Origin: Myxococcota bacterium
Lineage (GTDB): Bacteria; Myxococcota; Kuafuiibacteriia; Kuafuiibacteriales; Kuafuiibacteriaceae
Reading direction: 5' to 3'
DNA length: 64,000 nucleotides
NCBI GenBank assembly: GCA_036337945.1
Contig: JAYZDF010000062.1
Span: 29,998 to 93,997, forward strand
Position numbers and translations under genes: made by a program. Under the pieces are notes generated by a model, which was not told the origin of the DNA, ran no database searches, and saw only the letters and a program-made list of their open reading frames with translations. This document shows positions 19,359-46,038 of this stretch, in pieces (the stretch's first letter is position 1; every line of letters begins with the position of its first letter).

Positions 19359-19373
19359 TAGCTTACTCTTCTT

Positions 19374-19637: not shown

Positions 19638-19641
19638 CGTA

Positions 19642-20070: not shown

Positions 20071-20133
20071 AAGTCGCTCACGAAAAATTGATCCTCCGCA
20101 GATACTCTTTAGAGGATACAGTGAAGGCTGCTC

Positions 20134-20283: not shown

Positions 20284-20464
20284 AACTATCTCCGTTCAGA
20301 GCTGGCTGTATCGCCATAGCGCGCTTAGCCTGTCAAGCGATCGCTTCACACTAATGTGTGAGAATCTGATCTTTTTTTTCATTTTTGGTTTGATTCATAT
20401 TCACAATTTCCGTAGTTGCGGCAGCTCCTGGCTCAGGCTACTTTGCCAGACTCCCGCATACGCT

Positions 20465-21892
20465 ATGAATGCAGATGCGGGAACAAAAAGGGGAATATAT
20501 CAGGTGGAATTGGCCGAAAATCAGCCCAATTGGATCCAACTTAAAGACGCTCTTGCTCGTCGACTTAGCCCACAGGTTTGGGCCACATGGATCAATCAAA
20601 TCAAGTGCCTGGAAGATAATGGAAAAACCCTCAGGATCGGGCTACCTGACACATTCAGTCTGAATTGGGTGAAAGATCACTATCGTCACGTCATTGAAGA
20701 AGAACTTCAAAGTATCGGAAGCATCGACCTTCTCTTCGACCTTCACGAAGTAGAAAAGGAGAAAGAACCCGAACCTTCTGAAGCCCCAAGCAAAGTCGAA
20801 GAAGCCTTACCTATTCCCGAACCAGTAGAAGAAGCACGACCGACATCTTTTCGAAGTAATATTCCAACGCCTTCTCGTCCCCAACTGAACCCTCGATACA
20901 TTTTTTCCAATTTTGTTGTCGGGTCCTCGAACGAACTCGCGTGGTCTGCGGCCCAGGCTATCGCCGAAAACGACCGCCCACCATACAATCCGCTGGTCAT
21001 CGTGGGTGGAGTAGGGTTGGGTAAGACCCATCTTTTGCACGCCATTGGGCACATTTTCCAAAAGAAACGCCCTCAGGCTAAAATTCAGCTCAAAACCAGT
21101 GAAGCCTTCATCAATGATGTCGTTACCGGAATCCAAGAGCATCGTATGCCGCAGGTCCGCTCTCGATATCGCAACTGTGACCTTCTTCTTATCGACGATA
21201 TTCAGTTTATTTCTGGAAAAGGACACTGTCAGGAAGAGTTCTTCCATACTTTCAACGCCCTCTACGACGCTCAGAAACAAATTGTCGTTACCTCGGATCG
21301 TATGCCGCATGAAATCGCAGACATAGAGCAGAGAGTCCGTTCGCGTTTCGCGTGGGGGCTCATTGCCGACCTAAAACTCCCTGAATTGGAAACACGAATC
21401 GCAATCATCCAACAAAAAGCCGCCAACGAAGGGCTTGAACTTGATGAAAGCGTAGCAAAATTCCTGGCGCAGTCCGTTCGGTCCAACACAAGAGAGCTGG
21501 AAGGCTGTATAAACCGCGTTCACGCCATCGCTTCTCTGCGAAAAACCCCTATTACTGTGAGTCTCACCAAAGAGGTCCTGCAGGGTATTATTAGTGACAA
21601 AAGCCAGGCCCTTACCTGCGACAGTATTGTTCGCGCCGTTGCTGCACACTTCGAGATCCGAATATCTGAACTGAAATCGACAAAACGCGCTCGAAATATA
21701 GCGTTTCCCCGGCAAATCGCGATGTATTTATGCCGAAATCATACCAGCGCGTCTTATCCAGACATTGGAAACGCCCTTGGCGGCAAAGATCACAGCACAG
21801 CCATCAACGCCGTGAAGAAGATTACTGAAAAAATTACCGAACCCGATGTGCGAAACCACATCGAAGAAATCGAAAGACAATTGCTCGATTAG
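20465..21892 (+). CDS. dnaA: chromosomal replication initiator DnaA (start taken at MNADAG rather than the upstream ORF start 20354)
   Basis: AAA+ Walker A GGVGLGKTHLLHAIG, sensor motifs, C-terminal DNA-binding domain (KRARNIAFPRQIAMYLCR...STAINAVKKI). Confidence 0.95.
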   Translation: MNADAGTKRGIYQVELAENQPNWIQLKDALARRLSPQVWATWINQIKCLEDNGKTLRIGLPDTFSLNWVKDHYRHVIEEELQSIGSIDLLFDLHEVEKEKEPEPSEAPSKVEEALPIPEPVEEARPTSFRSNIPTPSRPQLNPRYIFSNFVVGSSNELAWSAAQAIAENDRPPYNPLVIVGGVGLGKTHLLHAIGHIFQKKRPQAKIQLKTSEAFINDVVTGIQEHRMPQVRSRYRNCDLLLIDDIQFISGKGHCQEEFFHTFNALYDAQKQIVVTSDRMPHEIADIEQRVRSRFAWGLIADLKLPELETRIAIIQQKAANEGLELDESVAKFLAQSVRSNTRELEGCINRVHAIASLRKTPITVSLTKEVLQGIISDKSQALTCDSIVRAVAAHFEIRISELKSTKRARNIAFPRQIAMYLCRNHTSASYPDIGNALGGKDHSTAINAVKKITEKITEPDVRNHIEEIERQLLD

Positions 21893-22159
21893 AGCCACAG
21901 AGTATTGAAGAGAATTAACCACATGATGTTGTGTGTAACAGCCAAAAGAGCGTCTATAACTTGTGTACAGAGTTGTGATATGCGTGTGGAAAAGAAACGT
22001 GACGAGTTGTACACAATTTATCCAACTTTAATTCACAGTGAAGGGTTGTCTATGATCGAGAATCAAAACAAGGATTTACAAAAGTTATCCACAATTCACA
22101 GCCCCTACTACTACGATCAGTTTATTTAAAATACAGAACAGACTAGGACACAGAAAAAT
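21893..22159. other. oriC: putative oriC: dnaA-dnaN spacer with DnaA boxes and an AT-rich unwinding region
   Basis: Perfect TTATCCACA at 22083-22091; one- or two-mismatch boxes TTAACCACA, TGTGGAAAA and TTATCCAAC; AATTCACAG repeated twice; inverted repeat TTGTGTACA...TGTACACAA; AT-rich tract just upstream of dnaN. Confidence 0.6.
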
Positions 22160-23269
22160 ATGGAATTTAGCATCCCAGTCCAAGAACTCGCAAAGGCTCT
22201 CCAACGCGTTCAAGGAATCATCGAAAAGAAAACCACCATGCCAATTTTGGCAAACGTACTTCTTGAAGCATCGAAGGATGGTTTTTTAAGTGTAGCAGCT
22301 ACCAATCTTGAGATTGGCCTCACTGGAAAATACGCCTGTGACGTTGCTCAAGAAGGTTCGATTACTCTTTCGGGTCGTTCACTGTTCGATATTGTCCGTG
22401 CGCTTCCTAAGAAAATCGCAACACTAAAAAAAGTGAATAATGATTGGGTAGAAATTAGTTGTGGGAAAGTAAACTATCGTGTGGTCGGGATGTCTGCAGA
22501 GGGATATCCAACCTTACCAAGCTTTAGTGATGTTGAATATTTTTCACTGAGCAGTGATGCGTTCAAAGCGATGATTGATAAAACGCTCTACTCAGTTTGT
22601 ACGGACGAAACACGATACAATCTAACCGGAATTTACTGTGAAGCCTTGGCGGATGGAGATGGCATTCGTATGGTCTCAACGGATGGTCATAGACTATCGA
22701 TTGTCGAACAAAATACAAAAGATCAACCGCTTATAAAGAAAGGTATTATCATCCCTAGAAAAGGGATGATCGAATTAAGACGTCTTTTGGATGATGGTGA
22801 AAGTACCGGACAACTAGGCTTCAAAGACAATAGTGCTATCTTCGAAAAAGATGGACTCACACTCACTATGCAGCTCATTGAAGGCGAGTTTCCAGATTAT
22901 AAGCAGGTTATTCCTCAATCTTGCACTAAGAAAGTTATCGTCAATCGTGAGCTCTTCCAGTCTGCTCTCAAGAGAACTTCACTACTTTCACCAGATAAAG
23001 CCCAAGGAGTTCGACTTGACCTCTCAAATGGCAATTTAGCGCTCTCTGCTCATAATCCCGACGTTGGTGAAGCAAAAGAAGATATCGAAATTTCTTATGA
23101 TGGTGAAGAACTAAAAATTGGGTTCAACTACCGCTATATTTCTGATGTTTTACATGCACTCAACCACGAAGAAGTTGAATTACAACTCTCCGACTCTCTT
23201 TCTCCAGGTGTCATCATTGGCGCTGGTACTGAAGACTATCGCGCCATAATTATGCCGATGCGATTATAA
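22160..23269 (+). CDS. dnaN: DNA polymerase III beta sliding clamp
   Basis: 369 aa; MEFSIPVQELAKALQRVQGIIEKKTTMPILANVLLEA N-terminus; three-domain clamp length; C-terminal IIMPMRL. Confidence 0.95.
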   Translation: MEFSIPVQELAKALQRVQGIIEKKTTMPILANVLLEASKDGFLSVAATNLEIGLTGKYACDVAQEGSITLSGRSLFDIVRALPKKIATLKKVNNDWVEISCGKVNYRVVGMSAEGYPTLPSFSDVEYFSLSSDAFKAMIDKTLYSVCTDETRYNLTGIYCEALADGDGIRMVSTDGHRLSIVEQNTKDQPLIKKGIIIPRKGMIELRRLLDDGESTGQLGFKDNSAIFEKDGLTLTMQLIEGEFPDYKQVIPQSCTKKVIVNRELFQSALKRTSLLSPDKAQGVRLDLSNGNLALSAHNPDVGEAKEDIEISYDGEELKIGFNYRYISDVLHALNHEEVELQLSDSLSPGVIIGAGTEDYRAIIMPMRL

Positions 23270-23289
23270 TCTTTTTCTAAGTAATCACG

Positions 23290-24411
23290 ATGCGCATCTT
23301 GTCCGCGCAGATCTCTAATTTTCGAAATATAGAATCTGCAAAGCTAGAATTTTCCCCCGGCGTCAACGCTTTGATAGGCCCCAATGGTCAAGGGAAGACC
23401 AACGCTTTGGAGGCGCTTTATTGCATTGCTGCCTTGAGACCATTGAGAAATGTAACTCGTGCCAATCTTGTCCAGACCGGACACAAGGTCGCAAATATAA
23501 AGGTAGACGTCTCCGTCAAAGCCACAGGCCTAGAGCATGAATTGCAGCAAACTCTTACCTCAAGTAGTCGTAAACTTAGAAAAGACGGAAAGACGACCGA
23601 TGCAAATAATATCCTAGGCACGCTCACCGCTGTTGCCTTCACGCCTGATGACCTTGAAATATCGAAAGGCAGTCCGGACTTACGAAGAAAATTTATAGAC
23701 CGTGCTATCCTCAACACTCGGCCGGCCTATCTCGAGACCGCGCTCACCTATAGTCGAGCAGTTAAATCGCGAAACAAACTCTTATCAGACGATGGTGACG
23801 AGATACTCTTGGATGCCTATGATGAAACCGTGGCTAAAGCTGGCGCTGAAATCGTTCATGCCCGGAAAAATTACTGTTTAGAATTCACTCCCGACGTTGT
23901 CAGATTTTTTGAGGAAATCGCCCGACCTTGCCCAGAAATAACAATTAATTATTCTTCAACGATTGACGAGATCATCGAACTTGAGTCCCTTGATAAAACG
24001 ACCGAAAATTTCATTGAGCTTTTGTATAATCGTCGTCAAAAAGACCGGTGGCGAAAATCAACCACGCGCGGTCCGCATCTAGACGACCTAAAGATTCAAT
24101 TCGATGGTGTTGCTGCCAAAACTCGTGCCTCTCAGGGCCAACACCGAGCGTTGGTTTTGGCGATAAAGCTCGCTGAAATTGTTCATCTAGAGAGGAGTCT
24201 TGAGGAGCCACCTGTTTTATTACTCGATGATATTTCCTCGGAGCTTGATGCTATTCGCTCTGAACAGCTTTTTGCCCAATTGAGTGATATAGATGCTCAA
24301 GTGATCTTGACGACCACCCACGAATCCCAAATTCCAAAGTCGCTCCGTGATTCACTCGAGCCCACAAGAATTTATGATGTTCATTCTGGGAAGTTGTCTC
24401 CTCGAGCTTGA
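23290..24411 (+). CDS. recF: DNA replication and repair protein RecF
   Basis: Walker A GPNGQGKTN; signature/Walker B LLLDDISSELD; 373 aa. Confidence 0.9.
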   Translation: MRILSAQISNFRNIESAKLEFSPGVNALIGPNGQGKTNALEALYCIAALRPLRNVTRANLVQTGHKVANIKVDVSVKATGLEHELQQTLTSSSRKLRKDGKTTDANNILGTLTAVAFTPDDLEISKGSPDLRRKFIDRAILNTRPAYLETALTYSRAVKSRNKLLSDDGDEILLDAYDETVAKAGAEIVHARKNYCLEFTPDVVRFFEEIARPCPEITINYSSTIDEIIELESLDKTTENFIELLYNRRQKDRWRKSTTRGPHLDDLKIQFDGVAAKTRASQGQHRALVLAIKLAEIVHLERSLEEPPVLLLDDISSELDAIRSEQLFAQLSDIDAQVILTTTHESQIPKSLRDSLEPTRIYDVHSGKLSPRA

Positions 24412-30159: not shown

Positions 30160-32679
30160 TTATTCTTCTTCGCTGAGGGCTTCAATGAAGCTCTCAATTT
30201 CATCTGCTCGCGGGTGATTAGGCGCGAGCTTGAGAAAACGAGAAAGCGCCTTAACCGCTTTTTTGTCTTGCTCTAATTCACCGTAGCCAAGCCCAAGCGC
30301 CATATATGCTCGTGCATCGCGATATTTACTCAGCTTAATCGCCCTTCGTGCCGAAGCCATACCCGCCTTTGTTTTCCCTCGACTGACTAAGGTAAGCGAA
30401 AGTCCTGAATGCGCCTTTGCGTTTCTCGGACTAAGCTTTACCACTTTCCTAAATGCGGCTTCCGCTGCATTTAAATCTTTGCTTTCGAGAGCACTCTCAG
30501 CTTGCGAGAGTCGATCTAGGACCTCAGGGTCATTTGCTTTCTTTTTCTCCTTCCGCGGGAGAGTCTTTTTTGCTGGCGGAGGTGGTACGGCGTTTGCCGT
30601 TTGAGTAGCTTTCTTTACCGGCTTTGATTTTTCTGGAGCGACTGTTTTCGGAGTCGGTTTCGTCTCTATCTTTTGAACCGCCTTCTCAGCAACGACCTTC
30701 ACAGCTGGTTTATCCGTTTTTACACTTTCGGTTTGTGCTTCTGGTTTCGTTGTAGTCTGCGGAGTCTCAGCAGCCATGGTCGTAGATTTTGTTGCCGTTG
30801 CTTCATTTGCAGGCGGCTTAGAATCTACTTTCGCAATGTTGCTTGCCGAACTCTTCTTTGCAGCGATAGAGTCGCTTGTCGGTTCGCTCGATTTCGATAA
30901 CTGCAAAGCCACGAGACCGACTACCAAAAGGCCGGCCACTGCAATCATTGCCTGATTGCCGCGATTGGGAACTCCAGCAGCTTCCTCGATTGCATTTTCG
31001 TCGTACATCGTGAAGAAGCGATCTGCTGTGTCTTCTCGGTTATGCGCTTCACTTGCTGGTGCGTCCGGTTCAAGCATTCTTGGTTGTCTCGCGAGAGCCG
31101 ATTCAACTTCTTCTCTCGCTGAGGGTTGAACCATTCTTGGTGAGGCAAATTCGTCACTTGGTGGCGCGATAGGTGCCGGAGAGGCTAAAGCTGGTCGTTC
31201 TTCTGGCGCGTTTTCTATTTGAGGTGTTGGTACAGCTGGTAATTGTACTGTTTCCGCTTCGCTATTGGCAGGCACAAGTGGAACATTGCCGGTTGTGACA
31301 GTGCGAACAGGTGCTGGCGGTGGAGCTGCGATGTGCCTCACTTCAACAGCAGGTGGCGCAGTCAGGGTACGAGGACGAGGAACTTGTCTCGCGGACGACT
31401 GACTCATCGGTCTCCCCTCTGCATCACTCGATACTCGTTTACGAGACGAATCAGTCAGAAGAATCGGCTCATCTTCACCGGGAATAGGGAGACTCGGCGA
31501 TGAAAAGCCACTGTCTATAGTCATTGGTCGCAAGATTTGTGAAGGTGTATCAGCTGCCGGGATCATCGCTCGACCTAATACGGAAGGTAACCCTGGAATC
31601 GCTGTACTTGGTCGTACGGAGGCGAGACTTTTACGTGGTTCTGGCGCTGAGCTGAGCCATGCATTGAGTGATACCGACGAACCTCTAGCAGGCGGAAGTG
31701 ATGGTCTTGTTCTTCGGTCGAAAAGAACTCCATCAACGTAGAGCCGACTAATTGATTCTAACGCAGGTAAATCCAAGATTGATGTTTCGTTAAGGACATC
31801 TCGGGTATTTCGTTTACCGTCGAACAATCGGATGAGCGACTCGACCTCTTCTGGTAGTGCATCGACGGTTTCGCTGAGCGCAGTATAATCAACATCTAAT
31901 GGAATGCTCAATGATGGCAGCAAGTCGCGAATTTTCGTCCATTGGTCGACTTGTTTCATTCCTTCAACAATGACTTCCTTTAGGCTCACTCTGATGATGT
32001 TCTCTCGGCCAAGTGGAGTTGATTCGATTTCGAAAACACCATTGTCCCAAAGCATGAATCGGTAAATGGCTTCTGCCCCGCTGAGTCGTTTGAGTTCGGC
32101 ATCGATGATGTCTCCATCTCTGCAGTAAATGCGTCCGCTTTCATTTGCCTCAGCAAAACCACCACTTTGTTTTGGGTCAGAAGCGAGGTGAATAATGCAG
32201 GTTTTCTTTCCCGACTCTACGAGCTGAAGAAGGTCAACAAGACCTATGTCCTCGAGTGTCCCGCTGAAATTCCGAGATGAATCTAACTCAGTGAGTTGAT
32301 TGTATGCCTGTCGATCAATGAGAGCTGTTGCGCGACTCACGATCTCTTTGACCCGGATGGGCTTTCGCATGAATTCATCTGCGCCGGCAGAAATAGCTGC
32401 AATACGAGCTTGAGGGTCTGTATCCTCGCTCATGATAATCACGCCACATTTGTTGAGGGTCGCGGACGCTCGAATATGACTGCAAAGGTCATAACCGTTG
32501 CCATCCGGAAGATCAGCATTGGACAAGATGAGCTGTGGTTGCAGTGCCTCGGATGTGGATATTGCTTCTTGTAGGGTTGCGGAGGAATGTACGGTGAAGC
32601 CAACTTTCTTCAGGCTCACCTCCATTACACGCTGACTAGCAAGGTCGGGTTCAACGAGAAGTACGATACTTTCAGTCAC
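30160..32679 (-). CDS. multidomain signalling protein: pseudo-receiver (REC with D-to-N at the phospho-acceptor) + DUF4388 + Pro/Ala-rich linker + TM + C-terminal TPR
   Basis: REC fold VLLVEPD...QLILSNADLPDGNG (Asn where CheY has D57) with conserved K (FMRKPI); DUF4388-like TLEDIGLVDLLQLVESGKKT; TM MIAVAGLLVVGLVAL; C-terminal TPR. Confidence 0.7.
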   Translation of the reverse strand: MTESIVLLVEPDLASQRVMEVSLKKVGFTVHSSATLQEAISTSEALQPQLILSNADLPDGNGYDLCSHIRASATLNKCGVIIMSEDTDPQARIAAISAGADEFMRKPIRVKEIVSRATALIDRQAYNQLTELDSSRNFSGTLEDIGLVDLLQLVESGKKTCIIHLASDPKQSGGFAEANESGRIYCRDGDIIDAELKRLSGAEAIYRFMLWDNGVFEIESTPLGRENIIRVSLKEVIVEGMKQVDQWTKIRDLLPSLSIPLDVDYTALSETVDALPEEVESLIRLFDGKRNTRDVLNETSILDLPALESISRLYVDGVLFDRRTRPSLPPARGSSVSLNAWLSSAPEPRKSLASVRPSTAIPGLPSVLGRAMIPAADTPSQILRPMTIDSGFSSPSLPIPGEDEPILLTDSSRKRVSSDAEGRPMSQSSARQVPRPRTLTAPPAVEVRHIAAPPPAPVRTVTTGNVPLVPANSEAETVQLPAVPTPQIENAPEERPALASPAPIAPPSDEFASPRMVQPSAREEVESALARQPRMLEPDAPASEAHNREDTADRFFTMYDENAIEEAAGVPNRGNQAMIAVAGLLVVGLVALQLSKSSEPTSDSIAAKKSSASNIAKVDSKPPANEATATKSTTMAAETPQTTTKPEAQTESVKTDKPAVKVVAEKAVQKIETKPTPKTVAPEKSKPVKKATQTANAVPPPPAKKTLPRKEKKKANDPEVLDRLSQAESALESKDLNAAEAAFRKVVKLSPRNAKAHSGLSLTLVSRGKTKAGMASARRAIKLSKYRDARAYMALGLGYGELEQDKKAVKALSRFLKLAPNHPRADEIESFIEALSEEE

Positions 32680-32797
32680 AAGTGCCTAGACTCTTTCACG
32701 CACCCGAAACCTGGGTCAAGTCGGGCAATCGTCCTGAATCCGAATTCCGTATCTTGACGGGAGGGCTTTTCTGCATGTTACGAATATAATTGTCGAA

Positions 32798-34165
32798 ATG
32801 AGTGACCACGAGAAATTGCAGAAGACGAAGCTACTCACCGAATTATCGGCGGGACACGGGGTCACAACTCGAATTAATCCGAGTCGAGCTAAGCTGTTTG
32901 TTGCCAATGGGCCAGATAAAGGGAAAACCGTTGAATTGAGCCATGAAAAACTCGTCCTCGGAAGCGGAAGCGACTCAGACATCCAAGTGGTCGACCGAAG
33001 TATCTCTCGCCGCCACGCGAGCCTTTCTCGACAGGGTAATCTGGTGATGATCGAGGATTTGAACTCAACGAACGGTACCTACTTTCGAGATGTCCGGGTA
33101 GGAGCCATCCACCTACCACTGGGGCAAGAAATTCGTTTTGGGCAGATTCGGGTCAAATTTCTGCCAGAAGAGGAGATTTTGGAAATCGCTCCTTCTTCTC
33201 TGCAGAGACTGGGCCCTCTGATTGGTTCAGATCAACGGATGCGAGAAATCTTCACACTCATTGAAGATGTCGGGCCTTCAGACGTGACCGTAGTCATCGA
33301 AGGAGAAACAGGCACCGGTAAAGAATTGGTGGCGCAGGCTATCCATGAGTTCTCGAAACGCAAAAATCAGCCATTTGTCGTTTTTGACTGTAGCAATCAA
33401 CCCCGCGACCTTATCGAGAGCGCTTTGTTTGGTCACATTCGTGGCGCATATACCGGCGCTACCAGTCAGCGGGCCGGAGCGTTTAGTCGCGCAGACAAAG
33501 GGACCATCTTTCTTGATGAGCTCGGGGAGTTCGGAAAAGATTTGCAGCCAAAGCTTCTTCGAGTGCTTGAGGCGAGGCAGGTTCAAAAGGTTGGGGCTGA
33601 TGGTTACGACCCAGTCAATGTACGAGTCATTGCTGCCACCAACCGAAATTTAAAAGCTGAAGTTCGAGCTGAACGCTTCCGAGAAGACCTTTATTATCGT
33701 CTCGCTGTTGTAAAGATGGTCCTACCACCCCTTCGTGAACGGCCGAATGATATTCCGCTGCTTGTCGAACACTTTCTTTCGCTTCACGACGAGCCTTGTA
33801 CGATTGCACCAAAATCTCTTACGACCTTGAAGTCGTACCACTGGCCGGGGAATGTTCGAGAACTGAAAAATATCGTCGACCGGGCTTGTGCTCTCAATCG
33901 TGGACGAAGCGATGTCGATATTTCAGCCTATCTCACCGACCTTGATGAGGTTCGTTCAACCAATCATCTTCAAGTCGATGAGTTTGTATCCTTCAAAGAA
34001 GCTAAGGGTAAAGTCGTAGCTGAATTTGAAACGCGCTACATTGAAACTTTGCTGCGTCAGCACGGAAACAATATCTCTATGGCTTCACGCGAAGCGGGTA
34101 TAGACCGCAAGCACTTCAAAGAGCTTATGAAAAAACATGGAATTCAAGCGAATCCTGATGAGTAA
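32798..34165 (+). CDS. sigma-54-dependent transcriptional activator with N-terminal FHA domain
   Basis: FHA (LVLGSGSDSDIQVVDRSISRRHASL...STNGTY), AAA+ GETGTGKELVAQAIH, GAYTGA (GAFTGA variant), arginine finger region, C-terminal HTH. Confidence 0.85.
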   Translation: MSDHEKLQKTKLLTELSAGHGVTTRINPSRAKLFVANGPDKGKTVELSHEKLVLGSGSDSDIQVVDRSISRRHASLSRQGNLVMIEDLNSTNGTYFRDVRVGAIHLPLGQEIRFGQIRVKFLPEEEILEIAPSSLQRLGPLIGSDQRMREIFTLIEDVGPSDVTVVIEGETGTGKELVAQAIHEFSKRKNQPFVVFDCSNQPRDLIESALFGHIRGAYTGATSQRAGAFSRADKGTIFLDELGEFGKDLQPKLLRVLEARQVQKVGADGYDPVNVRVIAATNRNLKAEVRAERFREDLYYRLAVVKMVLPPLRERPNDIPLLVEHFLSLHDEPCTIAPKSLTTLKSYHWPGNVRELKNIVDRACALNRGRSDVDISAYLTDLDEVRSTNHLQVDEFVSFKEAKGKVVAEFETRYIETLLRQHGNNISMASREAGIDRKHFKELMKKHGIQANPDE

Positions 34166-37078: not shown

Positions 37079-37240
37079 TTCCTTCTTTTACAGTAAAACG
37101 ATCTGCTAAATGTAGGATAATGTAGTATGTGTTTGATTTAATTGGGATTTTGAGGCAACAAAGTCACATGTGCTACCGAAGATACAATTGGTCTAAGACC
37201 ATTGGTCTAGGCATTATACTTTTGAGAGGAGCAAATAGTA

Positions 37241-38305
37241 ATGATCGGATTTAATCCCTACTCACTTAATTCTCATCAGCTGCAGCAAAGCCTCGCCTTT
37301 GCGCATATCCAGGCGGGCAACGCCCACTTTCAACAAGCGGGTGCTTTACTGAATGCATTTCAGCCTCAGATTCCTTGTCATCCTTTTTCGGCAAACCAGA
37401 TGCCTCCGCATGTGGGTTGTATGCCTCCACCAGGACCGGAGTTTTCAAATGCACCCGCTGGTAAAGGTCTTACGAAAAATAAAGATGGCTCAATTACGAC
37501 GGCGGGCGGCTACACGATTAAGCCGGAAGGCCGGAGCAATGCGTGGAACATCACTGGGCCTGACGGCAAGCAGCTGACTCGAGTTTGGGGTGACCCACAT
37601 GTTGATGAAGCCGATGGCACTCGTTGGGATTTCACGAAAACCAGTGATTTTGTTCTTCCTGATGGTACTCGAATCCACTGTAAGACGACCTCTGAAACAG
37701 GAAAAAGTGTATCAAAAGCGCTGACGATCAATAACGGTAATGATGTCGTAAACATCACCGGAATTGATAAAAACAAGCCACAAACCGGCGAGATAAAGAA
37801 TAACGGCTACGAATGGAGAGCGAATCATTTCTCAAAGAATCCAGCTCTCGACGAGTTCAAGCTTGGTGGAAATGGTCCTGGCAATGTTCAATGGTACAAG
37901 TCCACGAGTGGAATCGAAAAAGGTCTCATCACCGGCGCTCACTACGACAAGAAGTCGAAGCAGTATCAGCAGAAAGTTGATGAATCAAAGAAGTACTGCG
38001 TAGACCCAAGTATGACCCCACAAGTTGGATCGCCAGCTTGGGGTAATCAAATGCGCATGGAGATGGCTGATTTGGTGAGTTCGATGTGGATTCATCCTGG
38101 TATTAAGCATTATATTGGCCAATTCCTTGCAGCCGACCACCTGACCAATCAATTGGGCGGAGGAGCCATGGGCGGTCTAGGGACCCACTTTGGCGGGTTC
38201 GGACAAGCGAACCAGGCCCTTGGTAACCTCGGAAATTATCACCAAGCCAATTCTGCAGCGAACCAGTCTTTGATGGCTCTTCGCTCTTCACAATTCTTCG
38301 CGTAG
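37241..38305 (+). CDS. Gln/Gly-rich protein without signal peptide carrying a GDPH autocleavage-type motif (DUF1521/MIIA- or VWD-like)
   Basis: WGDPHVDEADGTRWDFTKTSDFVLPDG fits GDPH-x3-DG-x3-DF-x4-DFVL of metal-ion-inducible autocleavage domains; N-terminus MIGFNPYSLNSHQLQQSLAFAHIQAGNAHFQQ lacks a hydrophobic signal; Gly/Asn/Gln-rich C-terminus. Confidence 0.5.
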   Translation: MIGFNPYSLNSHQLQQSLAFAHIQAGNAHFQQAGALLNAFQPQIPCHPFSANQMPPHVGCMPPPGPEFSNAPAGKGLTKNKDGSITTAGGYTIKPEGRSNAWNITGPDGKQLTRVWGDPHVDEADGTRWDFTKTSDFVLPDGTRIHCKTTSETGKSVSKALTINNGNDVVNITGIDKNKPQTGEIKNNGYEWRANHFSKNPALDEFKLGGNGPGNVQWYKSTSGIEKGLITGAHYDKKSKQYQQKVDESKKYCVDPSMTPQVGSPAWGNQMRMEMADLVSSMWIHPGIKHYIGQFLAADHLTNQLGGGAMGGLGTHFGGFGQANQALGNLGNYHQANSAANQSLMALRSSQFFA

Positions 38306-38316
38306 ATACAATTCTC

Positions 38317-38342
38317 GGTGCTCATTCTAATCGGTGAGCACC
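38317..38342 (+). terminator. hairpin (8-bp stem GGTGCTCA/TGAGCACC, 10-nt loop) between the GDPH gene and the chaperone gene
   Basis: Inverted repeat read from the sequence; no U-tract, so this may be an attenuator or processing site rather than an intrinsic terminator. Confidence 0.25.
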
Positions 38343-38411
38343 ACAAACGCGCCTTCCCCCTTATCAGTCTGTCCAAAACGCATTATGTTCTAATCGTCCA
38401 CGAGGCGAACT

Positions 38412-39023
38412 TTGAAAAAGAAAATTACTGAAATTACAGAAATTCCAGAGATTGATCCCGAACTAAAAAAACTGGCAGAGGCCGACGGCGTAAAAATCGT
38501 CGCTCGCTCTCCTCAACGGCTCAAGCAATTTTTAGAAGGCGCGATCACTTTGGGCGAACTCGAAGGCATTGATAAAGACGTTCAGATGAATATCGCTAAG
38601 AATGGCTTCACGTTGCTCAATCAGGGTAAGTTAGCCAAAGCCAAGACCATTTTTGAAGGCCTGCTAGCGCTGGATCCGTTTGATGCATACTTTCATACCG
38701 CGCTTGGCTCGATCGCTTTTCGAGATAAGGACATGGAAACTGCGTTGAACCATTTTGACAAAGCGCTAAGCATCAATCCTTTTTTCTCTACCGCTCGTGC
38801 GCACCGAGGAGAGATTCGTCTCGCGCGAAATGATTTTACTGGAGCGATCGAAGACCTCATAGAGGCGATCAATGCCGACCCGGAAAATGAACAACCAGCT
38901 ACTCAGCGAGCTCGTGCACTCATCGGTACGATCAAGGAAATCATGGCCAAAATTGAAAAAAATCCCGAGGCAGCCAAATCAGAAGCAGAGAGGGCCTTGA
39001 AGAATCAACAATCAAAAGAATAA
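38412..39023 (+). CDS. TPR chaperone resembling type III secretion class II chaperones (SycD/LcrH/CesD family); TTG start
   Basis: FLEGAITLGEL...IAKNGFTLLNQGKLAKAKTIFEGLLALDPFDAYFHTALGSIAF...NPFFSTARAHRGEIRLARNDFTGAIEDL aligns position by position with LcrH (FLKGGGTIAMLNEI...GKYEDAHKVFQALCVLDHYDSRFFLGLGAC...PRFPFHAAECLLQKGELAEA). RBS GAGG upstream; 9-bp tandem repeat ATTACTGAA x3 at codons 5-14. Confidence 0.55.
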   Translation: MKKKITEITEIPEIDPELKKLAEADGVKIVARSPQRLKQFLEGAITLGELEGIDKDVQMNIAKNGFTLLNQGKLAKAKTIFEGLLALDPFDAYFHTALGSIAFRDKDMETALNHFDKALSINPFFSTARAHRGEIRLARNDFTGAIEDLIEAINADPENEQPATQRARALIGTIKEIMAKIEKNPEAAKSEAERALKNQQSKE

Positions 39024-39093: not shown

Positions 39094-40485
39094 ATGACTA
39101 GAAAAAACCGAGTGCTGATTCTCGACGATGAGGCCAATACTCTTGTTACGCTAAAGCGAGCGCTTGAAATGGAGTCCTATGAGGTTCTCACTGCATCTAC
39201 TATCGCTGAAGCACGAACAAGATTAGCCGAAACGAACCCCGATATATGTCTCTTTGATGTTCGGCTCCCTGATGGTGATGGTATTGATTTGCTTGCATCG
39301 CTGATTCAATCTTCTGATGATGATACCCACGCGTTACCGCCCGTGGTTATGATGTCGGGACACGCCGCCATAGAAGACGCAGTCCGAGCGTTACATTTAG
39401 GTGCTCGAGATTTTCTTGAAAAACCGATTGGTCAAGAACGACTACTCGTAACGCTAAAAAATACTCTCGAGCTGAAGTCTTTGGAGCGAGAAAACCGAGA
39501 CCTCCGAGAAAAAACAGGCGCCAACACAACCAGTATTGAAAAGCTTATTGGGCGCTCAGAAGCTATGACCACCCTGAAGGAACATATTGAACGAGTCGCA
39601 AAAAGCGAAGGCCGAGTTCTCATTACTGGAGAGAATGGTTCCGGTAAGGATCTCATTGCCCGTGCGATTCACGAGTATTCTCTTCGAGCGAAAGAGCCTT
39701 TTATTTCATTGAACTGTGCAGCTGTTCCTAAAGACCTCATCGAATCCGAATTGTTTGGTCATGAAAAAGGTGCGTTTACCGGTGCCGTGTCACGAAAAAT
39801 CGGAAAGTTCGAACGTGCTGATGGCGGAACACTATTTCTTGATGAAGTCGGCGATATGCCGATGGACATGCAGGTTAAATTGCTCCGATTATTGCAAAAT
39901 CATGAGCTGGAGCGAGTTGGAGGCACTTCTCTTATCAAAATTGATGTCCGAGTGATCGCAGCCACGAACAAGGACCTTGAAAAAGAAATCGAAGAAGGAC
40001 GTTTTCGAGAGGATTTGTACTATAGGCTAAACGTTGTTCCTTTGGTTTCTCCGCCCCTTCGTGACCGTAAGACCGACATACCTTTGTTGATCAATCAATT
40101 TCTCAGTGAAGCAAGTGCTAGAAACCATCGAAGACCACCAGAACTTTCTCCCGGAGCGATAGCTTTGTTAAGTAGCTATCATTTTCCGGGCAATGTTCGA
40201 GAACTGAATAATCTCATCGAGCGTATCGTCATCCTCGTTCCCCGCGATAAAGATATGATTTCCGAAGAAGATATTTCCACTTTTATCCCAACGAAAAAGT
40301 ATTCAACAAAGAAGAATTATCGCTCTGGCGTAAAACTATCTGAGCTTGTCCAGGATGCTGAGAGGAGTATCGTCGCGCAAGCTCTTGAGGCCCACAATAA
40401 CGTTGTTGCTGAAACGGCACGCTCTCTCGGTGTCGAGCGCTCCAACTTCCATAAAAAACTCAAGTCTCTTGGTCTGCGTTCTTGA
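39094..40485 (+). CDS. sigma-54-dependent response regulator (NtrC family: REC + AAA+ + HTH)
   Basis: REC with [14 protein letters not shown]+ [22 protein letters not shown]-terminal HTH. Confidence 0.85.
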
Positions 40486-40487
40486 TT

Positions 40488-42200
40488 CTATTTCCTAAGA
40501 GCAGCTTTTACTTTTCGCCGGAGACTTTGCAGCTTTTCCTGCTTTCCGCCTGATTCAATGAGTGTGGTTCGATAGCGTGCCGCGAGTTCGGGGTTATGAG
40601 CTTCGAGCTTCTTAATAAGTCGAAAAACTTCCTGTTTCGTCGCGGCTTTCTGTTGAACCGGCTTGGCCATAGCCTTGTTTTCAAGTGCTTCTGGCGGTGC
40701 TCGCTTTGTCGTCTTTAATGCGTTTTTCTGTGTTTTTTGCTGAGGTTTCTGCACGTCCTTGTTGTCGGCCGTCGGTTTTAAGCTCTCTGTTTTCTTTTTT
40801 TCAACCTTCGGCGAAGCCACCGTGTTGATGTCGTCAGGTTGTTCCGTTTTTGCTCTTTGTCCAGTGACGGCTTTCAGCGACGGACTCGTTTGTTGAACCG
40901 GTTGAGTCGACCGAAGATTTGTTTCTTGGTTTCTCTTCCTTACGCCAAGAACTAAGACTGCACTTACGACAAACGCAGTGAGTAACAAAATCAATGGTAG
41001 TTTTGAGGATGGAGTTGGAGCGACAATGACACTTGAGTCCCGCATGTAAAGTGCATTCATGTGGGCCGGCTGAACATTCGAAGGTCCGGTTTCAGAGCTT
41101 GGCCAGTACACGCGGGTAGCAATCGCCTCATAGAATGCCGCGTCCGGCTCTCTTGGAGCAACTTTATCTACGCGAGTTTGTAGCTCGACGTCTTCTCCTA
41201 TTGAAGAAGGTGTGAGGCGTATTTCTGCCATTGTCGATTCAAGAAGGTGTGGGTCAATTTCGAAAGCTTCTTCTCCGAAGCACTGAACGATCATTTGGCT
41301 CAGATCTCGCTCAATTGCAGTCGAGTTAGGTAGATTTCGAAGGACTTCCGAAAGTTGGCGATAAAGCTCGCCCGAGTCTGCATGTCGTCGCTCAGGTTTT
41401 TTCTCTAGAGCCTTTTCGATGACGAGAGACAAAGATTTTGGAAATTCAGGTAAGGCTTCGCTCAGCGGGACCGGTTTATGATCAAGTACTGCTCGCATTG
41501 ACTTCGTCGGTTCTCCGCGCCCAAAAAGTCGACGAAGGCAGGCCATCTCATACATAACGGTTCCTAAAGCGAAGACATCTGTACGTGCTGTCAACGTTCC
41601 ACCAACGACCTGTTCTGGAGCCATATAGCTCGGTTTGCCGCGAACTGTTCCGACTTGTGAAAGATGATCCTGGACATTGGTTCGAGCTACGCCGAAATCC
41701 ATAAGTCGTACTACTCCACTGGTATCGACAAGGATATTGTGTGGGGAGATATCTCGGTGAATCAGCTGAAGTTTTTCTCCATTCAGCTCTGCTCGACTAT
41801 ATGCATAGTCCAATGCGTTCGCCATCTTGAGTCCTACGTGAGCGACGATCGATGGTGGCACAGTGATCTTTTGTTTCGCACATTGTTGAAGGAGACTGCG
41901 AAGAGAAGGTCCTTGGACCAAATCCATAGCAATGAACATCATTCCGTTGTGGTCTCCTAAATCGATCGTTGGAACGATGGACGGGTGTTGTAATGCTGCT
42001 GCGGTCTTCGCTTCATCGAGAAACATAACCTTAGAGTTCTCGTTACTTACCTTACTTTTCAGAACTTTAAGAGCGATTAGTTTTTGGAAGCCTTGAAGCC
42101 CAACTTGCTGGCACGCCCAAACCTCGCCCATACCCCCTTTGCCTAACGGAAAAAGGAGTCGGTAAGGTCCGATAATTTGTCCAGCTTGAAGACCTGGCAC
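40488..42200 (-). CDS. Ser/Thr protein kinase with TM segment and Lys/Gln-rich C-terminal domain
   Basis: LGKGGMGEVWAC, ALKVLK, HRDISPHNILV, DFGVAR, YMAPE; TM LPLILLLTAFVVSAVLVLGV. Confidence 0.85.
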   Translation of the reverse strand: MPGLQAGQIIGPYRLLFPLGKGGMGEVWACQQVGLQGFQKLIALKVLKSKVSNENSKVMFLDEAKTAAALQHPSIVPTIDLGDHNGMMFIAMDLVQGPSLRSLLQQCAKQKITVPPSIVAHVGLKMANALDYAYSRAELNGEKLQLIHRDISPHNILVDTSGVVRLMDFGVARTNVQDHLSQVGTVRGKPSYMAPEQVVGGTLTARTDVFALGTVMYEMACLRRLFGRGEPTKSMRAVLDHKPVPLSEALPEFPKSLSLVIEKALEKKPERRHADSGELYRQLSEVLRNLPNSTAIERDLSQMIVQCFGEEAFEIDPHLLESTMAEIRLTPSSIGEDVELQTRVDKVAPREPDAAFYEAIATRVYWPSSETGPSNVQPAHMNALYMRDSSVIVAPTPSSKLPLILLLTAFVVSAVLVLGVRKRNQETNLRSTQPVQQTSPSLKAVTGQRAKTEQPDDINTVASPKVEKKKTESLKPTADNKDVQKPQQKTQKNALKTTKRAPPEALENKAMAKPVQQKAATKQEVFRLIKKLEAHNPELAARYRTTLIESGGKQEKLQSLRRKVKAALRK

Positions 42201-42262
42201 AACTCTTCTTTACACTGCCTCGAATCGAGGTGCGAGTATCAACCACGACCTAGAAGCCGAAA

Positions 42263-43168
42263 TCAGGCCTTTTTGTGGTCTTTTGCTCGAAGGAGCAGCA
42301 CCGTAAGGTTGTCAGGTTTTGCTCGAAGGGTACCCATCCGCCGCAGAATAAGGGTGCATATTTTGTTCACCACATCGATCGCGCTATCGGTCTCGCTCAG
42401 TATCTTAGCTAACTCATCGGACTCAACCATTCCCGAATCCAAAAGGCCGTCCGACCCCATGAGCAACCAGTCTCCAGGCTGCAAATCCCAAGCATAGGGT
42501 GTGGGTTCGCAACCTTCAGGCTCTAAGCCTATGGCGTGTTTAAGACATGCCTGGTCAGGAGGAGGATATTCGTGCATCTCGCTTCTCGTACGCATCTGAC
42601 CATCTCGATCAAATAATACGGCGCCCGAGTCCCCTGAATTTACAAGGTAAACTGCGTTTGGCTCCAGGTACGCAGCCACTGCAGTAGTGACTTCTCCCTC
42701 TTTTCTATCCAGCAAAAGTTTGTGGGCAGAGAGAAAAGTGCCGAGCATGACATCGATAGGATCTACTTCTTCACTCCCATTTGAGGAGTCATTCCGCGCC
42801 AGGTTCTGAAAGCCTCGCAACATTGCTTCAGCTGCAAGGGCTGAGGCACGTCCCCTAACTCGTCCTCCGAGTCCTCCTGCTTGATCCAGCGCGACCGCAT
42901 ATACGCGTCCTTGTTGGTCTCGAAAGAGTGCACCCGCATCTTCATTATATCGAGCGTATCCGCGCCCTCTTGATGAATAGATAGCACCCTGAAAATATTC
43001 ACTTTCTAGCGGAAGCGCTGACTTGCTCTGCCTCCCATCGGCAATACAGGTCAAAGCAACTGAGAAATCTTCGATCTCCTCAATACACGGGGTTTTCAGC
43101 GCTTTCTCGCGCTGAGACGCGGAGGTCTCCAAAAATCCGAACGGTAACCAAGTGGTCCAAAAGGACAT
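42263..43168 (-). CDS. PP2C-family Ser/Thr phosphatase
   Basis: SSRGRGYARYNEDAG, ALDQAGGLGG (DGMGG-like) and LMGSDGL motifs. Confidence 0.8.
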   Translation of the reverse strand: MSFWTTWLPFGFLETSASQREKALKTPCIEEIEDFSVALTCIADGRQSKSALPLESEYFQGAIYSSRGRGYARYNEDAGALFRDQQGRVYAVALDQAGGLGGRVRGRASALAAEAMLRGFQNLARNDSSNGSEEVDPIDVMLGTFLSAHKLLLDRKEGEVTTAVAAYLEPNAVYLVNSGDSGAVLFDRDGQMRTRSEMHEYPPPDQACLKHAIGLEPEGCEPTPYAWDLQPGDWLLMGSDGLLDSGMVESDELAKILSETDSAIDVVNKICTLILRRMGTLRAKPDNLTVLLLRAKDHKKA

Positions 43169-43281: not shown

Positions 43282-46038
43282 ATGACTGTAATTGCCGAAG
43301 TAACAGCCCATGGGCAAAGTATCTGGTTCGACTATATTCAGCGGAATATGATTTGGGACGGAACACTTCATCGAATGGTTATTGAAGACAGCGTTCGAGG
43401 AGTCACGAGTAATCCTTCGATCTTCAATAAGGCCATTGGTGGTTCAAAAGACTACGCCCCAGCGATGAGAGCCTCTGTAGCCAGCGGAGGAACTCCCAAG
43501 GATGTTTTTGAGCGTATTGCGATCACCGACATTCAAATGGCCGCCGACGTTTTGTTTGGGGTCTACAATGAAACTAACGGATTAGATGGTTACGTCAGTT
43601 TAGAAGTTTCTCCGTATCTTGCGTACGACAGTCAAGGAACGATTGAAGAAGCCGAACGGCTTTGGACTGAAGTTGCACGCGAAAATGTGATGATCAAGAT
43701 ACCCGCGACTGAAGAAGGACTTGTGGCGATCGAACATTGCATTGCTTCAGGCATCAATGTGAATGTCACTCTTTTGTTTTCGGTTGAAACGTACGAAGCG
43801 GTCGCTTGGGCATACATAAGAGGACTCGAAGCTCGTGCAGAACACGGCGGAGACTTAACTCACGTAGCCAGCGTAGCAAGCTTTTTCATTAGTCGCATCG
43901 ACGCGTTGATCGAAAAACGGTTTGCTGCCCTCGAATCTGATGCTGATGAAGAAACAAAAAAACTTATGCAAGATTTGAGCGGTAAGATTGCTATCGCAAA
44001 TGCGAAGGTTGCTTACCAGTCGTATAAAAATATTTGTGAGCATGAGCGATTCAAAAAACTTGTCGAACAAGGTGCTCAGCCTCAACGTCTTCTCTGGGCG
44101 AGCACTGGAACTAAGAATCCAGAATATTCTGACGTTCTTTACGTCGAAGAACTAATTGGTCCTGAAACAGTCAACACCGTTCCAGAAAAGACCTTTCACG
44201 CTTTCAAGGATCATGGAAAAAGTGATGCAAAACTACTTGAAGGAATTGATGAAGCTTCTGCTTTAGTAGAGAGCCTTAAAAAAACAGGAGTCGACCTCAA
44301 CGAAGTGACATCAGAACTTCTCGATAAAGGCGTAATTGCATTTGCCGATGCTTTCGATGAACTCCTGGGAACGGTCGAATCACGACGGAGCGACCTTCTT
44401 GATGCTGAACTCAGTTCTGTTTTAGTCAAAGCACCAAATCACATTGAAGAAATTGACCAGACCATCGAGTCACTGCGTAAGAGCGCTTTTGTTCGTCGCT
44501 TGTGGCAGCGCGACTCACGTCTTTACGCCGGAAGTGAAAAAGAAGATCGATGGGGCTGGATGATGCATGCAGATGAGTTAGCGGATCAATTGCTAGGTCT
44601 CTCTGCTTTCGCCGAAGATTTGGAAGATAGTGGTGTTGAGTACGTTGTTTGGCTCGGAACCGGTGGTTCATCTCGATCAGCTCGAGTATTTTCTTCACTT
44701 CTTCCACGCGGCGAGGATGCACCACATTTATTCTTTTTGGAGTCCACGCATCCAGAATCGATTCAGCGGATCGAGAGTCAGATTGAACTTGATAACACGG
44801 CATTCATCGTAGCGAGCAAGAGTGGCACGACAGCAGAAACGCGAACGCTTGCAGACTATTTTTGGGATAAAGTCGGTGAAGAGGCCGTCTGGTATGCCAT
44901 TACCGACCCTGATACAGCGCTGGAAACCTTAGCGGAAGAGCGAAATTTTGCCGGCGTGCTGCACGCAGAACCAGACGTTGGTGGTCGTTTTGCTTCTCTG
45001 ATCGGCTTTGGTCTGGGTGCTCCGGCCCTGCTCGACCAAGATTTAGGTTCTGTTTTATTTCATACAGAAGCAATGATCGGAAGCTGTCACGGTAGCTCTC
45101 CAGCTCCGCAAAACCCAGGTGTTCAGTTAGGTGCGGCGCTGGGTGTTTTTGCTAAAGCTGGTTACAATAAGCTAACTCTTTCTTTATCGCGTGAGTTGAG
45201 TGGTTTTGGTCCATATCTTCAACAACTCGTCGATGAGAGTCTCGGTAAAGATGGAAAAGGCTTAGTGGTCATTGATGGCGAATCAATCACTAGTCCCGAA
45301 AAGTATGGCAACGATCGATTGTTTGTGTCGCTACTGTTGGGTGGAGAGAAGGTCAGCTCCCGCTTGGCTGCTTTAGAGGCTGAAGGTCATCCACATATCG
45401 AAATTCGAATGGACTCCTGTGATATGATTGGTCAGCAATTTTTCTTGTGGCACATAGCTGTCTCTACTGCCGCTCATGTCCTAGAGATCAATCCATTTGA
45501 CCAACCTAATGTGGAATTGAGTAAGAAGCTGAGTCGTGAATTTCTAAGTTCAGAAACGACGCTCGATTTGAATCTTCCTTTATCGGGTGAAGAAGTTCTT
45601 CATGACGATGAAAATGTCACTATTTTCGGAACAAGTACTCTAGGGAGTGTTTCTCGACTTGACGAGACAATCGTAGAATTTGCGAAAGGCGCAGGTACGG
45701 GCGCTTATGCAGCTTTACTTGCTTACGTTGATGAAACCAATGAGACTGAAGAACTCCTACAAGCATTGCGCTTGAAGATTCGAAATCAAACGCACTTGGC
45801 AACAACTCTTGGTTTCGGTCCGTCGTACCTTCATGCGTCTGGCCAACTTCATAAAGGAGGTCCAGACAAGGCACGCTTTGTCGTCTTTACACCGTCTCTT
45901 GAAGATTCAACAACGGAATGTGCCCAATTACTCTGTGCGCAAGCAGCCGGCGACGTTCACGCTCTTCGCCAATCTGGTCGCGACGTTCTTCGCGTTCAAC
46001 TCAAGAGCACGCTGCGTTCTGCCCTCGGTTCGTCGTAG
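43282..46038 (+). CDS. bifunctional transaldolase / glucose-6-phosphate isomerase
   Basis: N-terminal transaldolase (SIWFDYIQRNMI...VTSNPSIFNKAI...IKIPATEEG) fused to C-terminal PGI (GTGGSSRSARVF...). Confidence 0.85.
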   Translation: MTVIAEVTAHGQSIWFDYIQRNMIWDGTLHRMVIEDSVRGVTSNPSIFNKAIGGSKDYAPAMRASVASGGTPKDVFERIAITDIQMAADVLFGVYNETNGLDGYVSLEVSPYLAYDSQGTIEEAERLWTEVARENVMIKIPATEEGLVAIEHCIASGINVNVTLLFSVETYEAVAWAYIRGLEARAEHGGDLTHVASVASFFISRIDALIEKRFAALESDADEETKKLMQDLSGKIAIANAKVAYQSYKNICEHERFKKLVEQGAQPQRLLWASTGTKNPEYSDVLYVEELIGPETVNTVPEKTFHAFKDHGKSDAKLLEGIDEASALVESLKKTGVDLNEVTSELLDKGVIAFADAFDELLGTVESRRSDLLDAELSSVLVKAPNHIEEIDQTIESLRKSAFVRRLWQRDSRLYAGSEKEDRWGWMMHADELADQLLGLSAFAEDLEDSGVEYVVWLGTGGSSRSARVFSSLLPRGEDAPHLFFLESTHPESIQRIESQIELDNTAFIVASKSGTTAETRTLADYFWDKVGEEAVWYAITDPDTALETLAEERNFAGVLHAEPDVGGRFASLIGFGLGAPALLDQDLGSVLFHTEAMIGSCHGSSPAPQNPGVQLGAALGVFAKAGYNKLTLSLSRELSGFGPYLQQLVDESLGKDGKGLVVIDGESITSPEKYGNDRLFVSLLLGGEKVSSRLAALEAEGHPHIEIRMDSCDMIGQQFFLWHIAVSTAAHVLEINPFDQPNVELSKKLSREFLSSETTLDLNLPLSGEEVLHDDENVTIFGTSTLGSVSRLDETIVEFAKGAGTGAYAALLAYVDETNETEELLQALRLKIRNQTHLATTLGFGPSYLHASGQLHKGGPDKARFVVFTPSLEDSTTECAQLLCAQAAGDVHALRQSGRDVLRVQLKSTLRSALGSS

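Follow-up and report, generated by a model that had tools for sequence, protein, structure and literature searches.

What does a gene pair that resembles a type III secretion substrate and its chaperone do in a stretch of DNA in which no secretion apparatus is encoded? This question is raised by a stretch of 64,000 nucleotides (the window) from contig JAYZDF010000062.1 of a Myxococcota bacterium, in which the gene for a 203-residue tetratricopeptide repeat (TPR) protein lies directly downstream of the gene for a protein with a DUF1521 domain. A preliminary description had read the two genes as a chaperone–substrate pair in type III secretion system (T3SS) style, with the apparatus encoded elsewhere, and alternatively as a remnant. 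Our computational analysis supports the first of these readings, based on the chaperone-like sequence and fold of the TPR protein, the DUF1521 identity of its partner with an invariant GDPH motif, the conserved pairing of the two genes, homologous pairs inside T3SS clusters, the co-occurrence of a pair and sctV in one metagenome-assembled genome (MAG), and purifying selection. With a probability of about 0.6, we propose that the TPR protein is a cytoplasmic chaperone with a SycD/LcrH (class II) fold, belonging to an undescribed family of uncultured Myxococcota-type bacteria, and that it forms, together with the DUF1521 protein, a two-gene T3SS substrate–chaperone module that is encoded away from the apparatus genes. 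From these observations, we infer that the two proteins bind each other, that the DUF1521 protein is secreted and cleaved, and that the source genome encodes a T3SS.

The TPR protein and its likeness to class II chaperones

The open reading frame (ORF) of the TPR gene is exactly as described before (Table 1), and its TTG start codon and Shine–Dalgarno sequence are both kept in a closely related locus (L023); a database look-up returned no exact record of the encoded protein, whereas a 99%-identical relative (P0115) was found for the DUF1521 partner. The protein is small, acidic (pI 5.8), and of a soluble type, with a hydrophilic N-terminus (MKKKITEITEIPEIDPELKK) that contains neither a signal peptide nor a lipobox. 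It consists of a variable N-terminal region (residues 1–30), a pre-TPR helix that carries an invariant G43/T46/L47 motif, three TPRs (residues 55–155, approximately), and capping helices. The tandem repeat that had been noted at the beginning of the gene is present, albeit not as three perfect 9-bp units but as an imperfect repeat. The N-terminus that bears it is poorly conserved across the family alignment, and the repeat, to which we assign no function, is probably incidental.

Among the NCBIfam families, TIGR02552 (LcrH_SycD) is the best match (60.6 bits, E = 1.3e-16), with residues 42–169 aligned to profile positions 2–129 of 136, a near-full coverage that includes the pre-TPR segment. The next family, PrsT, scores 47 bits, and Pfam detects only generic TPR repeats. 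A search of 5.8 billion proteins yielded 114 relatives, all from Myxococcota and "Deltaproteobacteria" MAGs and bearing no label other than TPR or hypothetical protein. When 61 of these relatives were aligned, the invariant or nearly invariant residues were seen to include G43, T46, L47, and G48 as well as an "LDPFDAYF" block, and all 61 match TIGR02552, with a best E-value of 4.4e-25. As the match is family-wide, and as the gene pairing described below recurs across divergent loci, the likeness to LcrH/SycD is more than a chance resemblance.

When the PDB was searched at full length with phmmer and profiles, designed consensus and multi-repeat TPR proteins crowded out other matches, and the comparison was informative only with single-stretch coverage, with an N-terminal fragment, and with structure searches. 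In the sequence search with the family profile, PcrH, SycD, and AcrH were matched in single stretches that comprise nearly the whole chaperone. When residues 33–103 were used alone, the top matches were class II chaperones only (AcrH, E = 3.5e-4; PcrH, 1.8e-3; SycD, 0.04), and these alignments are ungapped and in register, including the pre-TPR "G-x-x-T-L" segment, which bears out the residue-by-residue correspondence to LcrH/SycD that had been claimed. The fold is all-helical, with three TPRs and flanking helices, and is nearest to that of solved class II chaperones, AcrH, SycD, and IpgC being the closest in structure searches. When plasmids (pYV, pINV, and others) were searched by tblastn with the TPR protein, generic TPR matches alone were returned, and the pairwise likeness to LcrH or IpgC is therefore too weak for BLAST.

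The DUF1521 partner, the gene pair, and type III secretion

The upstream gene ends 106 bp before the TPR gene, as had been described, and its product is recognized by Pfam PF07481 (57.2 bits against a gathering threshold of 23.6; residues 79–180). This domain, DUF1521, is the MIIA domain (for metal-ion-inducible autocleavage), which cuts after the Asp of a GDPH motif, as demonstrated for the MIIA domain of VIC_001052; it is largely disordered without Ca2+, and it occurs in the T3SS-secreted proteins NopE1 and NopE2 as well as in VIC_001052, a product of the Vibrio coralliilyticus T3SS cluster (PMC6506597). The window protein has the sequence WGDPHV at residues 116–121, and in an alignment of 45 homologs, whose conserved core spans residues 60–280 approximately, G117-D118-P119-H120-V121 is invariant. 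By analogy, the window protein would self-cleave between D118 and P119 in the presence of metal ions and would be secreted by a T3SS. It had been called signal-less, which agrees with our analysis: no signal peptide and no transmembrane-like segment was detected, the maximum Kyte–Doolittle hydropathy over 19 residues being 0.53. The AlphaFold2 model (pLDDT 75) comprises a disordered region (residues 1–61), a beta-rich core (about 70–250), and a C-terminal part (265–353) of helices with a Gly-rich "FGG" segment; a Foldseek search of the PDB with this model gave no meaningful match, all TM-scores being about 0.1. The N-terminus is depleted of acidic residues (3% Asp plus Glu, compared to about 10% elsewhere), and the first charged residue is E67. 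Such a charge-free N-terminus is weakly compatible with a type III secretion leader.

The pairing of the two genes is widely conserved. We analyzed 80 metagenomic loci anchored on a DUF1521 gene, of which 68 were informative and 12 too short to tell, and in at least 53 of the 68, a member of the TPR family is encoded directly downstream. By a strict distance rule, 15 of the 68 do not have such a gene; in three of these (L063, L066, and L092), a family ORF starts within about 200 bp of the end of the DUF1521 ORF, and in another one (L085), a family member is found about 2 kb away. Viewed from the TPR side, the gene immediately upstream is a DUF1521 gene in the lineage of the window (P0004, L023/L024) and also in L002, L008–L010, L015, L020–L022, and P0013, and in L025, the TPR gene begins 19 bp downstream of the DUF1521 gene. 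The pairing is not obligatory, as no TPR gene is encoded within 10 kb of the DUF1521 gene of L026. Uncultured MAGs were the only genomes in which the module was found; the Myxococcus xanthus genome was scanned with a single peptide pattern. Based on this conserved adjacency, the DUF1521 protein is most likely the client to which the TPR protein would bind. Candidates for the region held in the concave TPR groove are the conserved P62–L77 segment ("P-x-P...APAGKGL") and the C-terminal helices.

A more direct connection to type III secretion comes from those loci in which the pair resides within a T3SS gene cluster. T3SS core genes (SctN/R/T/U/V) are present in nine of the 80 DUF1521 loci, and in all nine, the DUF1521 and TPR genes are adjacent. 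In L075, L081, and L094, the pair is found amid SctN, SctR, SctT, SctU, and SctV, and in L083, L089, and L107, SctU and SctV follow the pair within a few kilobases. These pairs have the same architecture as that of the window, with WGDPHV in a partner of about 340–390 residues and a TPR protein of 170–190 residues that is 28–38% identical to the window protein, and as many as three paralogous genes for chaperone-like TPR proteins occur in the clusters that hold them. A sister TPR subfamily (P0103–P0109) adjoins SctV/U/T/S/R/P/O/N and is paired with Gly-rich proteins that lack a Pfam match. On a Bosea plasmid, a gene for a 369-residue DUF1521 protein flanks the T3SS cluster.

Two more pairs of an unknown protein and a SycD-like TPR protein were observed beside a T3SS cluster in L005 (1707–2853 and 8687–10552) and L027 (3505–4652 and 8714–10549). 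One of the partners has 432 residues with 21.5% glycine, is poor in cysteine, contains GGAGGAGQAG repeats and a C-terminal helix, and looks harpin-like; the other one has 230 residues and no family match.

A dispersed pair can also co-occur with a T3SS gene. In the MAG GCA_002721815.1 (Myxococcales SP234), PBLQ01000034.1 (L009) holds a dispersed pair and PBLQ01000053.1 holds sctV, the two contigs being linked by NCBI accession blocks and one contig look-up. This sctV (L029, 10001–12130; also L028) is solitary, located between lexA and sugar-modification genes without any other sct gene within 10 kb, which shows that this lineage can have its T3SS genes scattered. According to NCBI accession blocks, a second MAG probably also carries a dispersed pair together with sctV. 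SctV genes are common in Myxococcota MAGs. A search for SctV gave at least 8,000 matches, and among the 120 of these that were listed, none was seen on a contig with a dispersed pair.

By analogy to characterized systems, the module could function as follows. In the cytoplasm, where Ca2+ is low, the chaperone would bind its client, which would be largely unfolded without metal, and would thereby keep it soluble, uncleaved, and competent for export. The chaperone would then deliver this protein to a type III export gate whose genes lie elsewhere, and outside the cell, Ca2+ would fold the MIIA core and induce self-cleavage between D118 and P119, which would generate two fragments.

The sigma54 regulator and competing explanations

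Several observations weigh against the proposed module. The TPR protein does not reach the curated TIGR02552 cutoff of 104.8 bits, and it is thus not a formal member of this equivalog, so that the suggested profile check confirmed the best-matching family and not the membership. However, the TPR proteins encoded inside the T3SS cluster of L005 likewise score below the cutoff (79.6 and 85.3 bits), which is why we attribute the missed cutoff to lineage divergence. The DUF1521 client does not belong to the hydrophobic translocators, and the canonical P/VxLxxP motif for chaperone binding, searched as P/V-x-[LIVMF]-x-x-P in the region before GDPH, is absent from it and from most family members. The DUF1521 genes of Bosea and Bradyrhizobium have no annotated TPR chaperone gene beside them, and about 12–15 of the 68 informative loci have no adjacent TPR gene. 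The reported absence of sct, ysc, or flagellar export genes from the window was confirmed by BLASTP with SctV/U/T/R/N probes and by Pfam analysis of the remaining large ORFs, which encode only housekeeping and signalling proteins, and at about 20 related loci, no T3SS genes were found at distances of up to 10 kb. As even sctV is solitary in one carrier of the pair, a 64-kb view without an apparatus is weak evidence against a T3SS. Finally, many family members are tightly coupled to a sigma54 regulator, which suggests an additional or alternative role.

The regulator in question is a REC–sigma54 AAA+–HTH_8 response regulator, an NtrC-type enhancer-binding protein (Pfam scores of 85.4, 249.9, and 31.9 bits for Response_reg, Sigma54_activat, and HTH_8, respectively). 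Orthologs with 59–64% identity are encoded directly behind the TPR gene, or overlapping with it, in L001, L002, L004, L006, L007, L013, L014, and L016–L019 and likewise in L043–L045, with or without a DUF1521 gene being present. In L001 and L002, the stop of the TPR gene abuts or overlaps the start of the regulator gene, and in L004, no more than 16 bp separate the two; this frequent translational coupling suggests a regulatory link. Basic C-terminal tails of 45–92 residues, rich in Pro, Ala, Lys, and Arg, are found in 11 of 13 regulator-linked TPR proteins, and in none of eight members linked to DUF1521 only, none of four T3SS-linked members, and not in the window protein; the median pI of the family is 9.1 because of these tails, which may represent a nucleic-acid or polyanion-binding extension. 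Tailed members were seen at L001, L002, L004, L006, L007, L012, L014, and L016–L019 (around locus position 10000), and the tails usually end in a short basic run such as KKK, RKK, or KKS. Directly 5' of the TPR gene, a histidine-kinase HATPase_c fragment is encoded in L012 (9153–9884) and L017 (9143–9847), which results in the gene order histidine kinase–TPR protein–sigma54 response regulator. A protein resembling Lsa36 that is encoded 5' of the TPR gene in L004, L006, and L007 has a signal peptide and the appearance of an outer-membrane protein, and it was set aside as a probably unrelated neighbour.

It could thus be argued that the TPR protein has its main role as a cofactor or adaptor for the sigma54 regulator, acting together with the Ser/Thr kinase and the PP2C phosphatase encoded nearby, and that the DUF1521 protein is an intracellular ligand or Ca2+ sensor, with no secretion being involved. 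The abutting and overlapping genes, the kinase fragments, and the long tails that are missing from classical chaperones all fit such a role, as do two MAGs in which TPR and regulator genes share one locus and the DUF1521 gene stands alone at another, and the absence of T3SS genes near the regulator-linked loci. We nevertheless regard this explanation as rather unlikely, since the window protein is short and tail-less like the DUF1521- and T3SS-linked members, its gene is separated from the regulator gene by 70 bp, a regulator ortholog is present in only four of the 80 DUF1521 loci compared to at least 53 with a TPR gene, and the pair occurs inside T3SS clusters without that regulator. In a neighbour-joining tree, which is rough and has no support values, the contexts with DUF1521 and TPR genes are basal and the regulator-linked contexts derived. 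As the window protein lacks the tail and the regulator contexts appear derived, a regulatory link is plausible but secondary for this protein. Moreover, a regulatory role would also be compatible with the substrate–chaperone module as an added layer, and the regulator is probably, although this is speculative, tied functionally to the module by co-expression or by a feedback of free chaperone.

The pair could also derive from a T3SS and now function independently of it, with the TPR protein as a holdase for a self-cleaving protein that stays in the cytoplasm or takes another export route. Dispersed pairs indeed sit in housekeeping neighbourhoods, with no apparatus genes in the window or close to the dispersed pairs, and purifying selection indicates that the genes are in use, whatever this use may be. 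However, at least one MAG with a dispersed pair encodes a solitary SctV, so that dispersal is normal there, a second such case is probable, SctV is common in Myxococcota MAGs, and all characterized DUF1521 proteins are associated with a T3SS (PMC6506597), so that we judge this possibility to be unlikely. The same selection analysis bears on the remnant option of the preliminary description, in which the pair would be a functionless, decaying leftover of a lost T3SS. The absence of apparatus genes from the window is the sole support for this option, and it is effectively refuted: in comparison with the close relative L023 (dS about 0.5), dN/dS is 0.010 for the DUF1521 gene (82 synonymous and four non-synonymous differences) and 0.029 for the TPR gene, compared to 0.041 for the regulator gene and 0.10 for the housekeeping gene hemY. 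As both genes are under such strong purifying selection, with intact ORFs and a conserved start codon, Shine–Dalgarno sequence, and hairpin, the pair is not a remnant. A last explanation, that the protein is a generic TPR scaffold or a TadD/PilF/PilW/Tgl-type pilotin or docking lipoprotein unrelated to T3SS chaperones, would agree with the dominance of consensus and multi-repeat proteins in the full-length PDB searches, with the generic plasmid matches, and with weak NCBIfam matches to PilW, Tgl, and GltE. We consider it very improbable: these matches cover only the repeats and are far below the cutoffs (PilW, 29.8 of 154 bits; Tgl, 27.3 of 225 bits), so that the profile searches, with TIGR02552 on top, did not point to the TadD-type or otherwise unrelated family that had been considered beforehand. 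TadD/PilF-type TPR pilotins have a signal peptide and a lipobox (PMC4311626), both of which are missing in the window protein with its hydrophilic N-terminus. Furthermore, AcrH, PcrH, and SycD are the specific alignment partners of the pre-TPR segment, the structural neighbours are class II chaperones, and the genomic association is with DUF1521 and T3SS genes.

Non-coding elements, neighbourhood, and comparison with known systems

The region between the two genes of the module (38306–38411) folds with a minimum free energy of −22.7 kcal/mol (z = −2.56 compared to shuffled sequences) and contains a hairpin (Table 1) that is kept with 100% identity in L023, in contrast to the flanking genes with their dS of about 0.5. 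An intrinsic terminator was not called at this hairpin, which may act in transcript processing or stability and thereby set the ratio of the two gene products. A block at about 37098–37175 (AAACGATCTGCTAAATGTAGGATAATGTAGTAT...GGATTTTGAGGCAACAAAGTCACATGTGCT), upstream of the DUF1521 gene, is almost perfectly kept in L023; no sigma70- or sigma54-type consensus was detected in this block, which probably serves the module as promoter or operator. A palindrome (TGGTCTAAGACCA) at 37189–37201, also upstream of the DUF1521 gene, was dropped, as it is not conserved in L023, and the same applies to an internal sigma54 site at 38116–38131. Sigma54 promoter motifs occur in the window at chance level (30 observed, 28 expected), and they are not enriched upstream of most DUF1521 genes. 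In one DUF1521 subclade (L053, L054, L055, L057, and L063), near-consensus sigma54 promoters (e.g., TGGCACGCTCGCTGCT) are found 83–127 nt upstream of the DUF1521 genes, four of them scoring 10 of 11 compared to 0.05 expected from shuffles; by the strict distance rule, this subclade has no adjacent TPR gene.

Table 1. Positions of the gene pair, its sequence elements, and the downstream regulator gene in the window.
Feature	Position	Strand	Remarks
DUF1521/MIIA protein gene, probable secreted client	37241–38305	+	354 aa; PF07481
Codons G117-D118-P119-H120, predicted autocleavage site (between D and P)	37589–37600	+	motif invariant in 45 family members
Intercistronic RNA hairpin	38317–38342	+	RNA fold; 10-bp stem, 6-nt loop, no U-tract after it
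Shine–Dalgarno sequence GAGG	38402–38405	+	6 nt 5' of TTG; read from sequence, kept in L023
SycD/LcrH-fold TPR gene (probable dedicated chaperone)	38412–39023	+	203 aa, TTG start
Imperfect 9-bp tandem repeat, encodes ITEITEIPEI	38422–38453	+	Tandem Repeats Finder: period 9, 3.6 copies, 86% matches, score 43
REC–sigma54 AAA+–HTH_8 response regulator gene (NtrC-type enhancer-binding protein)	39094–40485	+	Pfam domains

The window has a G+C content of 47.8%. Pfam annotation identified the flanks of the pair as they had been described, with hemE and a hemY-like oxidase gene upstream, and the REC–sigma54–HTH regulator, a Ser/Thr kinase, and a PP2C/SpoIIE phosphatase downstream. Synteny at 30160–34165 and 40488–43168 (a large PatA_N-REC-TPR protein, an FHA-sigma54 activator, a Ser/Thr kinase, and a PP2C/SpoIIE phosphatase) is kept in distant relatives, which suggests a larger signalling neighbourhood. 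A 918-residue fusion of transaldolase (TAL_FSA) and glucose-6-phosphate isomerase (PGI), encoded at 43282–46038, is also kept in relatives. Positions 16296–24411 represent the chromosomal replication-origin neighbourhood, with jag/R3H, yidC, and rnpA on the minus strand and dnaA (20354–21892), dnaN, and recF on the plus strand, and oriC is probably located in one of the flanking intergenic regions there.

Compared to the class II chaperones LcrH/SycD, PcrH, AcrH, IpgC, and SicA, the window protein differs not only by its score below the curated cutoff of their family. Its gene follows the substrate gene and is far from any apparatus gene, whereas class II chaperone genes precede those of their substrates, which are pore-forming translocators and not soluble DUF1521/MIIA proteins without transmembrane segments and P/VxLxxP motif. 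In addition, many members of the new family have basic tails and are coupled to the sigma54 regulator. Chaperone-dependent regulation of T3SS genes is known from IpgC–MxiE and SicA–InvF, in which the activators belong to the AraC family. As in these systems, the genes for a class II-type chaperone, a substrate, and a transcription activator are found together in the window, and a free chaperone that acts as co-activator would explain the recurrent coupling of TPR and regulator genes. However, the activator is a sigma54 enhancer-binding response regulator and not an AraC-family protein, and sigma54-type promoters show no enrichment in the window or upstream of most DUF1521 genes.

With NopE1 and NopE2 of Bradyrhizobium and with VIC_001052, which cleave themselves with Ca2+ and are either secreted by a T3SS or encoded in a T3SS cluster (PMC6506597), the window partner shares the DUF1521 domain and the GDPH motif. 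The homology is confined to this domain of about 100–130 residues (33–38% identity), and the Myxococcota-type proteins combine a single such domain, located near the N-terminus, with a conserved extension and a helical C-terminus rich in Gly. In the searchable literature, no TPR chaperone is described for NopE-type DUF1521 proteins. Another system to be compared is the T3SS* of Myxococcus xanthus, a non-flagellar T3SS from the same phylum that is described as having no needle and translocon homologs; a review of Myxococcus predation does not name any T3SS* substrate, and the word "chaperone" is absent from its text (PMC10849154). The DUF1521–TPR module, in contrast, is known from uncultured MAGs.

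A more far-reaching idea, which we consider unlikely, is a secretion-sensing circuit in which export of the client by a myxobacterial-type, possibly needle-less T3SS would free the chaperone, which could then bind and modulate the NtrC-type enhancer-binding protein. If this were true, the circuit would be a sigma54 counterpart of IpgC–MxiE and SicA–InvF, the DUF1521 proteins would be the first identified substrates of the enigmatic myxobacterial T3SSs, and a class II-type chaperone would serve a soluble, Ca2+-triggered, autoprocessing effector instead of a translocator.

In conclusion, substrate–chaperone pairs of T3SSs are well known, but three aspects of the pair proposed here are undescribed in the searchable literature: a chaperone of the class II fold that is dedicated to a soluble, self-cleaving DUF1521/MIIA protein and not to a pore-forming translocator; a conserved and mobile two-gene unit of uncultured Myxococcota-type bacteria that resides in T3SS clusters or among housekeeping genes; and a chaperone family with a recurrent link to a sigma54 response regulator. 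The module thus offers cargo candidates for the poorly understood myxobacterial T3SSs, and it may point to the missing chaperone logic of NopE-type effectors.

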